DNA from: Escherichia phage ECP2301
Sequence record: OR880646.1
Length of the DNA stretch: 64,000 nt
Reading direction: 5' to 3' (one strand)
In this document: positions 36,260 through 37,277 of the stretch, piece after piece
Layout: every line of letters begins with the position of its first letter
Numbering within the stretch: position 1 is the stretch's first letter
Notes under the pieces: generated by a model
Database searches by the model: none
What the model was told of the DNA's origin: nothing
The model's input: the letters and a program-made list of their open reading frames with translations, nothing else
Translations under genes and position numbers: made by a program

Positions 36260-36335
36260 GGTCGAGGCAGTAGGGATCGAACCTACGACCTAGGACTTAG
36301 AAGGTCCTTGCTCTTCCTTCTGAGCTATGCCCCGT
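36260..36335 (-). tRNA. tRNA-Arg (anticodon UCU)
   Basis: Hand-folded cloverleaf: anticodon loop CUUCUAA, T-loop GGTTCGATCC, CCA encoded. Confidence 0.8.
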
Positions 36336-36339
36336 AATT

Positions 36340-36415
36340 GGGGTGACCGATGGGAGTCGAACCCATGACTACGAGAATCACAATCTCGAGTTCTACCAAC
36401 TGAACTACGGCCACA
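36340..36415 (-). tRNA. tRNA-His (anticodon GUG), no encoded G-1
   Basis: Acceptor GTGGCCG/CGGTCAC, anticodon loop TTGTGAT, discriminator C73, CCA encoded; base at -1 is U. Confidence 0.7.
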
Positions 36416-36529
36416 TTAATACCTACTCCAACAATCAAGATGTCTTCACACGAAATTAAGAGAAGAGTGATCAGTTCAACCCCTATAATCGCGTCAAGTA
36501 GATATTAATGTGACAGTTGTCACAAATTT

Positions 36530-36604
36530 GGCGGACGTGATAGGATTCGAACCTATAACCAATCGCTTAACAGGCGATCGCTCTGCCATTGAGCTACACA
36601 TCCA
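36530..36604 (-). tRNA. tRNA-Asn (anticodon GUU)
   Basis: Acceptor GGATGTG/CACGTCC, anticodon loop CTGTTAA, T-loop GGTTCGAATCC, CCA encoded. Confidence 0.75.
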
Positions 36605-36608
36605 AATT

Positions 36609-36695
36609 GGTGGGGAGTGGTGGAGTCGAACCACCCGAGTCGCAATGACAATGGATTTACAGTCCACACCGCTACCTATACGGGATAACTCCCCA
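36609..36695 (-). tRNA. tRNA-Tyr (anticodon GUA), type II with long variable arm
   Basis: Acceptor GGGGAGT/ACTCCCC, anticodon loop CTGTAAA, T-loop GGTTCGACTCC, CCA encoded, 87 nt. Confidence 0.7.
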
Positions 36696-36704
36696 AATTA
36701 ATTT

Positions 36705-36779
36705 GGTGGCCCTGGGTGGAATTGAACCACCATCTGGCGATTATGAGTCGCTTGCTTGAACCTTCCAGCTACAGGGCCT
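36705..36779 (-). tRNA. tRNA with anticodon CAU (Ile2-type as in T4, or Met)
   Basis: Acceptor GGCCCTG/CAGGGCC, anticodon loop CTCATAA, T-loop GGTTCAATTCC, CCA encoded. Confidence 0.7.
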
Positions 36780-36780
36780 T

Positions 36781-36856
36781 GGTGCTGATTGACGGAATTG
36801 AACCGCCGACCTTCTCATTACAAGTGAGTTGCTCTACCTACTGAGCTAAATCAGCA
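36781..36856 (-). tRNA. tRNA-Thr (anticodon UGU)
   Basis: Acceptor GCTGATT/AATCAGC, anticodon loop CTTGTAA, CCA encoded. Confidence 0.8.
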
Positions 36857-36861
36857 AAACT

Positions 36862-36951
36862 GGCGGAGGCGATAGGATTTGAACCTATGAGTCGCCGGAG
36901 CGACTGCCGGTTTTCAAGACCGGTGCATTAAACCACTCTGCCACGCCTCCA
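36862..36951 (-). tRNA. tRNA-Ser (anticodon UGA), type II
   Basis: Acceptor GGAGGCG/CGCCTCC, anticodon loop CTTGAAA, long variable arm, CCA encoded, 90 nt. Confidence 0.8.
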
Positions 36952-36953
36952 GT

Positions 36954-37027
36954 CTCCATACAAGGATTTGAACCTTGGACCTCCTGATCCCAAATCAGGC
37001 GCTCTACCAAACTGAGCTACACGGAGT
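36954..37027 (-). tRNA. tRNA-Pro (anticodon UGG), CCA not encoded
   Basis: Anticodon loop TTTGGGA; 2 nt upstream of tRNA-Ser, forming a Pro-Ser dimer as in T4. Confidence 0.8.
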
Positions 37028-37037
37028 AAATTAAATT

Positions 37038-37111
37038 GGAGCGGATAATGAGAATCGAACTCACATCATCAGATTGGAAGTCTGAGGTAATACCATTATA
37101 CGATATCCGCA
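37038..37111 (-). tRNA. tRNA-Gly (anticodon UCC)
   Basis: Acceptor GCGGATA/TATCCGC, anticodon loop CTTCCAA, CCA encoded. Confidence 0.8.
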
Positions 37112-37116
37112 AATTT

Positions 37117-37203
37117 GGTGCGAGAAGTGGGACTCGAACCCACAAGGAAATCATTCCGCAGCATTTTAAGTGCTGTGCCTTTACCAATTTGGCCATTCTC
37201 GCG
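37117..37203 (-). tRNA. tRNA-Leu (anticodon UAA), type II
   Basis: Acceptor GCGAGAA/TTCTCGC, anticodon loop CTTAAAA, long variable arm, CCA encoded. Confidence 0.8.
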
Positions 37204-37204
37204 C

Positions 37205-37277
37205 TGGGAATAAAGGACTCGAACCTTTGCATCCTGGAATCAAAATCCAGTGCCTTACCAACTTGGCTAATTCCCAA
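37205..37277 (-). tRNA. tRNA-Gln (anticodon UUG), CCA not encoded
   Basis: Acceptor TGGGAAT/ATTCCCA, anticodon loop TTTTGAT; 1 nt upstream of tRNA-Leu (Gln-Leu dimer as in T4). Confidence 0.8.

Follow-up and report, generated by a model that had tools for sequence, protein, structure and literature searches.

What do three tRNA genes beyond those of T4 contribute to a T-even-like phage, and why these three? This question is raised by a tRNA gene cluster in Escherichia phage ECP2301 (sequence record OR880646.1), of which we analyzed one stretch of 64,000 nucleotides (nt), hereafter the window. A preliminary description, made from the letters of the window, counted eleven tRNA genes and singled out those for His, Asn and Tyr as additions to the T4 set. 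It proposed that they might counter host defences that deplete tRNAs, as three of the four queuosine-family tRNAs cleaved by colicin E5-type nucleases, and might also supplement codons. We consider it quite probable that the locus is an allele of a known T-even region without the homing-endonuclease gene segB, that its tRNAs serve translational supply, that those for Tyr and Asn also act against host defence, that turnover sets the gene content and that the tRNA-His gene is a mobile module.

The eleven tRNA genes and their allelic relation to T-even phages

ARAGORN found 11 tRNA genes in the whole window, all on the minus strand and spanning 36259-37276. The preliminary description had thus located the cluster correctly, with coordinates off by one base (36260-37277). 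Infernal with Rfam matched ten of the genes as RF00005 at 60-74 bits (E from 1e-11 to 1e-15). For the class-II tRNA-Tyr with its long arm, the top match was the related tRNA-Sec model at 37 bits, which is under the threshold of that model. This weak score notwithstanding, its identity is backed by a match of 85 out of 87 positions to the experimentally characterised tRNA-Tyr of T6. The two programs agreed with the folds and anticodons that had been proposed from hand-folding, and ARAGORN accepted the His, Asn and Tyr genes with exactly the anticodons claimed for them (GUG, GUU and GUA). From 5' to 3', the genes are:

37203-37276, minus strand: tRNA-Gln(UUG); ARAGORN, Rfam 67.4 bits; no CCA; abuts tRNA-Leu as a dimer precursor, as in T4
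37116-37202, minus strand: tRNA-Leu(UAA); ARAGORN, Rfam
37037-37110, minus strand: tRNA-Gly(UCC); ARAGORN, Rfam; SegB consensus motif GAATCGAAC inside at 37052
36952-37026, minus strand: tRNA-Pro(UGG); ARAGORN, Rfam; no CCA; 1 nt to tRNA-Ser
36861-36950, minus strand: tRNA-Ser(UGA); ARAGORN, Rfam
36780-36855, minus strand: tRNA-Thr(UGU); ARAGORN, Rfam; anticodon stem U36AAUG/A41
36704-36778, minus strand: CAU-anticodon tRNA; ARAGORN; identical to the T2 gene
36608-36694, minus strand: tRNA-Tyr(GUA), class II; ARAGORN; 85/87 against T6 tRNA-Tyr
36529-36603, minus strand: tRNA-Asn(GUU); ARAGORN, Rfam; identical to the T2 gene; motif GATTCGAAC at 36544
36339-36414, minus strand: tRNA-His(GUG); ARAGORN, Rfam 65 bits; C73, encoded CCA, U at -1 (base 36415)
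36259-36334, minus strand: tRNA-Arg(UCU); ARAGORN, Rfam; allele different from T4 tRNA-Arg

The Gln-Leu and Pro-Ser dimer arrangement of T4 was present as described, with junctions of 0 and 1 nt, and CCA is not encoded in tRNA-Gln and tRNA-Pro, also as in T4. The Tyr, Asn and His genes do lie between the CAU and Arg genes, but they run in the order Tyr, Asn, His, and a 114-nt stretch without a tRNA (36415-36528) separates tRNA-Asn from tRNA-His.

Used as a megablast query against 50,697 phage records, positions 36100-37450 matched 1066 records, 265 of them at query coverages of at least 80%. The top record was Yersinia phage vB_YepM_ZN18 (Tequatrovirus; 99.3%), and the identical 11-tRNA set is already annotated in the two records that we inspected, ZN18 and fPS-65. 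The flanks are collinear with T4, with the trna.2-4 open reading frames (ORFs) upstream and rnaD and rnaC downstream (88% and 99% identity). A tblastn search with T4 SegB found no homologue in the window (best E = 1.2). A segB-free allele of the tRNA region was reported for T2L, RB1 and RB3 (Brok-Volchanskaya et al. 2008, PMC2330249), and its position, flanks and segB-free state are the same as those in the window. Judged by its sequence, the locus is a segB-free (T2L/RB-type) allele of the tRNA-rich region of Tequatrovirus. The cluster itself is already known, being annotated in GenBank relatives, and a publication of 2008 had set out how its allele relates to that of T4.

The T-even phages arrange this region differently. 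T4 has Gln-Leu-Gly-Pro-Ser-Thr-Ile, segB, Arg, rnaD and rnaC; T6 has Gln-Leu-Gly-Thr-Met-Tyr, segB and Arg; T2 has Gln-Leu-Gly-Pro-Ser, an ORF, Met-Tyr-Asn-Arg and an ORF of 116 amino acids (aa); and the window has all 11 tRNAs followed by ORF116, rnaD and rnaC. The window shares with T4 the order from Gln to Thr, the dimer junctions, trna.2-4, rnaD/rnaC and the terminator. However, T4 (8 tRNAs) carries segB between Ile and Arg and has no Tyr, Asn, His or ORF116. Homology between T4 and the window stops about 24 nt into the CAU tRNA and restarts at rnaD; therefore, the CAU and Arg genes are alleles different from Ile(CAU) and Arg(UCU) of T4. The proposed T4 set plus three genes thus stood from Gln to Thr and did not extend to CAU and Arg. 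The whole CAU-to-Arg segment is an alternative cassette, sitting where T4 has its segB cassette.

T2 shares the allele types of Met(CAU), Tyr, Asn and Arg with the window. Its CAU and Asn genes match the window copies letter for letter, the window Tyr differs by 3 nt, and ORF116, which corresponds to T2 EcT2_00138 by position and length, lies downstream in both. T2 differs in being without the 194-bp module of leader and tRNA-His described below and in having an ORF in place of tRNA-Thr. The upstream tRNAs of T6 are as in the window, but Pro, Ser, Asn and His are missing. Across these phages, Tyr, Asn and His are separately variable modules and form no single coherent set. The preferred 27-bp site of SegB lies within tRNA-Asn, and SegB homing swaps about 1.25 kb, taking in the Met, Tyr, Asn and Arg tRNAs (PMC2330249). 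The window tRNA-Asn probably holds this site, as it is letter-identical to that of T2 and contains the SegB consensus motif.

ARAGORN and GenBank records give the CAU tRNA as tRNA-Met. However, it shares the acceptor (GGCCC) and the anticodon arm (GCGAC-UCAUAAU-CGC) with E. coli ileX, and for this reason it is most likely the AUA-reading tRNA-Ile2 (lysidine) and not a tRNA-Met.

Downstream of the tRNA genes, four further features lie within the region:

35892-36242, minus strand: ORF116, 116 aa, phrog_3355; member of the T2-type cassette, absent from T4
35776-35895, minus strand: homologue of T4 rnaD (stable 'species 2' RNA), 106/121 identical
35631-35769, minus strand: homologue of T4 rnaC (stable 'species 1' RNA), 137/139 identical
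35557-35580, minus strand: hairpin resembling an intrinsic terminator, and U-run, closing the tRNA/rnaD/rnaC transcription unit

Looking for a function of ORF116 gave only phrog_3355, a family without assigned function, and a DUF2654 match under the threshold. ORF116 sits inside the variable cassette, in a region meanwhile recognised as an anti-defence hotspot. Its stop codon is overlapped by rnaD at the 5' end of the latter. The rnaD and rnaC homologues (35631-35895) are unannotated in the relatives inspected.

Codon supply and tRNA-cleaving defences

For codon and amino-acid usage, we took the non-overlapping window ORFs that reach 100 aa or more (66 ORFs, 16.4k codons) and compared them with ORFs called in the same way in 50 kb of E. 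coli K-12. Tyr (1.80 times the E. coli frequency) and Asn (1.65) were the two most enriched amino acids in the phage ORFs, Lys was the third (1.63), and His was the second most depleted (0.66; its codon CAC, 0.34), ratios that depend on greedy ORF calls and an E. coli side of only 50 kb, a caveat that counts against the reading favoured here. Among codons, AGA was enriched 7.3 times, AUA, the cognate of the proposed Ile2 reading of the CAU tRNA, 5.0, UCA 3.7, GGA 3.5, ACA 3.4 and UUA 2.9. Every T4-type tRNA pairs with a codon enriched 1.5-7 times. Since Tyr and Asn top the enrichment list, their tRNAs are predicted by supply. The codon supplementation suggested in the preliminary description thus fits Tyr and Asn but not His.

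The proposed role against tRNA-depleting defences fared similarly: it found support for Tyr and Asn, mostly in published work, and none for His. PtuAB of Septu Ec-B88 cuts tRNA-Tyr in the variable arm at C48/A49 (Chihara et al. 2026, PMC13096335). T4, which has no tRNA-Tyr, is sensitive to Septu and T2 is resistant; T6 escapes by SegB-driven amplification of tRNA-Tyr, and overexpression of tRNA-Tyr restores plating (PMC13096335). Because the phage tRNA-Tyr is itself cleaved by PtuAB (PMC13096335), it protects by supply. T5 tRNA-Tyr similarly counters the PtuAB of retron-Eco7, which also cuts tRNA-Tyr within the variable arm (PMC11555353). In T6, segB lies after Tyr and drives its tandem amplification under Septu; the window is without segB and this route is unavailable to it.

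The window tRNA-Tyr has exactly the same variable arm as that of T6, including C48, and retains the cleavage site GUC/AU. Its variable arm and T arm, UGUCAUUGCGACUCGGGUGGUUCGACUCCA, are also identical in rV5-like (CarlMeissner) and T5-like (ESCO40) phages. By these sequences, this is a pan-phage family of tRNA-Tyr, and the invariant arms imply lateral spread together with selection on the arm cleaved by PtuAB. The identity set of tRNA-Asn consists of G73 and the GUU anticodon, both of which are present in the window gene. Likewise, the whole identity set of tRNA-Tyr (A73, G34, U35 and a long variable arm; PMC9976931) is present in the window tRNA-Tyr.

AriB of the PARIS system targets E. coli tRNA-Lys(UUU) as well as tRNA-Thr(UGU) and secondarily tRNA-Asn(GUU), at U36AAUC/N41; a U39A change in the tRNA abolishes cleavage, and tRNA-His is at most a possible minor product (PMC12409363). 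The anticodon stem of the window tRNA-Asn reads U36AAG39CG against U36AAU39CC in E. coli, which places a U39G change within the UAAU motif of AriB. That of the window tRNA-Thr reads U36AAUG/A41 against the UAAUC/A site of E. coli, a C40G change. These two substitutions suggest possible resistance to AriB. T5 follows the same principle of phage tRNAs replacing host tRNAs lost to nucleases, with its tRNA-Tyr acting against retron-Eco7 and its tRNA-Lys, tRNA-Thr and tRNA-Asn against PARIS (PMC11555353, PMC11464382, PMC12409363). However, the T5 array is larger, at about 24 tRNAs, and has the key tRNA-Lys that is absent from the window; the resistance of T5 variants was shown by experiment, whereas that of the window tRNA-Asn is only predicted from U39G.

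A tRNA-His without G-1 and its leader

The window tRNA-His has an acceptor stem from G1-C72 to G7-C66 and the discriminator C73, preceded by U at position -1 and A at -2. It therefore has the C73, GUG anticodon and cloverleaf of a bacterial-type tRNA-His but not an encoded G-1 pairing with C73, unlike E. coli hisR, which encodes G-1. We searched IMG/VR for a tRNA-His pattern and obtained 79 loci, in which position -1 was T in 9/9 T4-like copies and G in 69/69 others. T at -1 was also found in Morganella phage MP1, Aeromonas phiAS5, Salmonella Melville, Klebsiella 5N and Kosakonia 305, and likewise in mycobacteriophage Bxz1; none of the Straboviridae copies that we examined encodes G-1. One contig whose large tRNA array is T5-like (L024) has kept G-1. 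The window and loci L010, L032, L051, L081, L111-L113 and L117-L119 have no G-1 but keep C73. The cloverleaf is well maintained: among eight sequences (seven phage copies and E. coli hisR), all 21 pairs were 100% paired and 12 had changed on both sides.

In eight metagenome arrays (L091, L095, L097-L099, L101, L105 and L108), we observed dense tRNAs with the anticodons Ser-AGA, Thr-AGU, Arg-ACG and Pro-GGG, listed as A34. Their tRNA-His has a T4-like 5' half, C73 and a single T after the preceding CCA. As only this T separates the CCA from the gene, these copies are also without G-1.

G-1 is the main identity element for bacterial HisRS, and its loss cuts charging more than 100-fold; together with C73, it redirects RNase P to the -2/-1 site (PMC9976931; PMC5499578). 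The anticodon also contributes to HisRS recognition (PMC9976931). By inference, the phage tRNA-His would be cut canonically at +1 and would be a poor substrate of HisRS. Some alphaproteobacterial and eukaryotic tRNA-His genes resemble the phage copy in not encoding G-1 (PMC9976931; PMC5499578). As in the phage, RNase P should cleave them canonically at +1. In the alphaproteobacterial cases, A73 goes with a HisRS that has co-evolved, and in eukaryotes G-1 is added by Thg1. The phage tRNA-His, in contrast, has retained C73 and has to rely on a HisRS of the E. coli type, which depends on G-1. We know of no Thg1-like enzyme in T-even phages.

The 114-nt stretch upstream of tRNA-His contains two features:

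36510-36523, minus strand: small hairpin GUGACAACUGUCAC, directly after tRNA-Asn; 3' half GUCAC
36415-36509, minus strand: 'His-leader', 95 nt, structured; RNAfold, covariation, conservation

The leader has a terminal helix of 13-14 bp, with arms at 36497-36509 and 36415-36427, which ends exactly at -1 of tRNA-His; it also has a 3' mini-hairpin with the loop UCUUGAU and a variable centre. RNAfold gave -26 kcal/mol (z = -3.56). In 15/15 Straboviridae arrays, a spacer measuring 33-213 nt stands before tRNA-His, although most of the 127 tRNA-tRNA junctions in these arrays are 0-10 nt long. Ten distinct leader variants fold alike, with an AU-rich terminal helix of 13-15 bp that starts just past the upstream CCA and reaches to -1 of tRNA-His, a small 3' hairpin with the loop UCWUGAU and a hypervariable, mosaic centre. 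The shortest, in Kosakonia 305, is the bare helix (33 nt). In a MAFFT alignment, the 17 pairs of the leader were 98.2% paired and six of them had changed on both sides. None of 500 shuffles matched the observed values in four of five measures, and four of 500 did so for the count of further pair types; slid controls gave a pairing of only 34-50%. Where the terminal helix departs from Watson-Crick pairing, all pairs but one are G-U when read on the tRNA-sense strand, which points to a structure at the RNA level.

No Rfam match was found in 36415-36528 at E of 1 or below (4227 covariance models) or in the leaders of eight related loci at E of 0.1 or below. Leader and tRNA-His together are 92% identical to Karamvirus-type arrays, where the block lies between Gln and Ser. 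A natural variant occurs in Escherichia phage sutha (L110, 1500-1640), where tRNA-His is almost wholly deleted and the leader is intact.

Several other explanations of the gap were rejected. A decayed tRNA, such as the missing Asp, was not seen by ARAGORN or Rfam, and the gap is instead a conserved element travelling with tRNA-His. A sigma-70 scan placed no minus-strand promoter there, with overall counts as expected from shuffles. A mobile element resembling a miniature inverted-repeat transposable element, with 15-bp inverted ends, was dismissed because copies of the arms in the 64 kb did not exceed chance, and kinship with T4 rnaC/rnaD was dismissed because local alignments were no better than shuffles. 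The GUCAC of the small hairpin is complementary to nt 1-5 of tRNA-His (36410-36414), and RNAfold of leader plus tRNA-His extended the helix into the acceptor strand through it. In the window, GUCAC is sequestered by GUGAC within the small hairpin. Such an extension is not a conserved feature, as it was seen only in some variants (the window, L010, L039 and Melville). The motif GUGACAAC recurs inside other leaders.

Our best guess, held with low confidence, is that the leader is a processing or insulator hairpin, possibly released as a stable small RNA. Our literature search turned up nothing relevant on the leader or on a phage tRNA-His that lacks G-1, and the combination of such a tRNA with an obligatory, covarying upstream helix absent from Rfam may be new. 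Tentatively, and with considerable doubt, we propose that Straboviridae and at least Bxz1 have a distinct lineage of tRNA-His without G-1 that keeps C73, and that the Straboviridae copies are locked to an upstream helix ending at -1.

Spacers were also seen elsewhere in Straboviridae arrays (L010, L039, L081, L087 and L092): those in front of tRNA-Asp often measure about 245 nt, and those in front of one CAU tRNA about 125-160 nt. More RNAs or small ORFs that escaped annotation may lie within these spacers.

Probable function and turnover of the cluster

In the reading that we favour, the region would be one transcription unit, with early or middle promoters upstream and its end at the terminator after rnaC, and host RNase P and 3' trimming enzymes would cut the transcript into the 11 tRNAs and small stable RNAs, both as in T4. 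The tRNAs would supply an AT-rich phage with decoders for the A-ending codons AGA, AUA, GGA, UCA, ACA and UUA, and the added Tyr and Asn genes would supply amino acids that the phage uses far above the E. coli level. Tyr and Asn would also top up tRNAs destroyed by abortive-infection nucleases, namely PtuAB at the variable arm of Tyr and AriB after position 40 of Asn. For Tyr, protection would come through extra supply; for Asn, the phage copy may additionally resist cleavage through U39G. Which of Tyr, Asn and His a phage carries would be set largely by homing-endonuclease and recombination turnover: segB occupies the place of the missing tRNA genes in T4 and T6, and the preferred site of SegB is within tRNA-Asn. 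tRNA-His, for which the supply logic fails, would be a laterally mobile module of leader and tRNA that moves across Straboviridae genera.

Besides the caveat on the usage ratios, several points weigh against this reading. tRNA-His fits neither supply nor a demonstrated defence target, and its charging should be more than 100-fold lower without G-1. U39G in tRNA-Asn is compensated by C31 and may be ordinary stem divergence. A defence role has been demonstrated only for the near-identical T6 tRNA-Tyr and for T5 tRNAs, and the Septu resistance of T2 was not attributed to its tRNA-Tyr (PMC13096335). Moreover, the tRNA region is dispensable in the laboratory (PMC2330249).

The preliminary description had tied the three genes to colicin E5. 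The substrate class of this nuclease is the Q34-U35 tRNAs, namely Tyr, His, Asn and Asp. It is very improbable, in our judgement, that Tyr, Asn and His were acquired together as tRNAs with GUN anticodons to outlast an E5-type nuclease cutting at 34/35. All three have U33-G34-U35 in a 7-nt loop, and the naive chance of finding three of the four GUN families in three of the 12 uncovered amino acids is 4/220 = 0.018, a post hoc figure. However, their anticodon loops (Tyr CUGUAAA, Asn CUGUUAA and His UUGUGAU) are those of E. coli tyrT, asnT and hisR. The suggested comparison of the loops with host tRNAs thus returned zero differences, there is no loop change to confer nuclease resistance, and an E5-type enzyme should cut the phage copies equally. 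The known nucleases of Tyr and Asn act elsewhere, at the variable arm and at 40/41 on the 3' side of the anticodon stem, and we met no antiphage system of E5 specificity in the defence literature examined. The genes are not co-inherited either, as Tyr occurs alone in T6 and with Asn in T2, and His comes with its own leader. The fourth member, tRNA-Asp, is absent from the window, and sister-genus arrays carry Asp, Asn, His and Tyr among many other tRNAs. Because usage already accounts for Tyr and Asn, leaving His alone, the pattern of three out of four carries little weight. Usage is also the strength of pure translational supplementation, in which all 11 tRNAs match AT-rich usage and any anti-defence effect is incidental: the codons of the T4-type tRNAs are enriched and Tyr and Asn are the top amino acids. 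Nonetheless, we regard it as quite unlikely to suffice. It leaves unexplained a tRNA for the second most depleted amino acid that is moreover without G-1, and the lack of a tRNA-Lys in the window even though Lys is enriched like Asn. In published genetics, T6 tRNA-Tyr decides the outcome with Septu (PMC13096335), and the variable arm of tRNA-Tyr, invariant in three unrelated phage families, points to selection on the arm that PtuAB cuts.

Selfish or neutral turnover would explain the CAU-to-Arg content by homing invasion, deletion and lateral transfer, with the window as an un-invaded allele. The extent of SegB homing (PMC2330249), the breakpoints between T4 and the window inside the CAU tRNA and at rnaD, the nested pattern from T6 through T2 to the window, the precise loss of His with the leader kept in sutha, and the 92% identity to Karamvirus-type arrays are all consistent with it. 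As the whole explanation it is possible but not likely, as it accounts for variation and not for persistence: Tyr, Asn and His are at least 99% conserved in hundreds of isolates, and 12 compensatory pairs maintain the tRNA-His cloverleaf across genera. Turnover is compatible with the favoured reading and does not exclude it. For tRNA-His and its leader, a non-decoding job might be considered: the tRNA could serve as a decoy for effectors that target tRNAs or could signal by being uncharged, or it could belong to a module for processing or regulation built around the conserved upstream helix. The consistent U at -1 in the T4-like IMG/VR copies and the six named phages (against G in all others), the strictly conserved cloverleaf, the depleted His codons, and the covarying leader helix in every array examined point in this direction. 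We still consider such a job unlikely, because C73 and GUG are kept, so that high expression could compensate for poor charging, and the leader may be a mere processing spacer. We know of no nuclease specific for tRNA-His, which also counts against it. In addition, charging of a tRNA-His that lacks G-1 does occur in some systems, C. elegans mitochondria being one (PMC9976931).

The anti-defence role of phage tRNA-Tyr was already published in 2024-2026, and the cluster adds nothing new to it. What has changed is the explanation of the three genes: the rationale of colicin E5 and queuosine gives way to mechanisms that are documented, namely cleavage of tRNA-Tyr by PtuAB and of tRNA-Asn by AriB of PARIS. 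Both genes are predicted from amino-acid usage alone, and tRNA-His is isolated as the sole gene that neither idea explains. Its anomaly thus becomes a testable question on tRNA identity and processing in infected cells. If the proposed lineage is functional, its tRNA-His would be either charged by an unrecognised route or deliberately poorly chargeable, with a non-decoding role as a decoy, a signal or a control of processing. Either way, if this is true, the 'His-leader' would represent a phage RNA element not described before. The question of tRNA-His also bears on the scoring of phage tRNA genes, which are usually counted as simple decoders.

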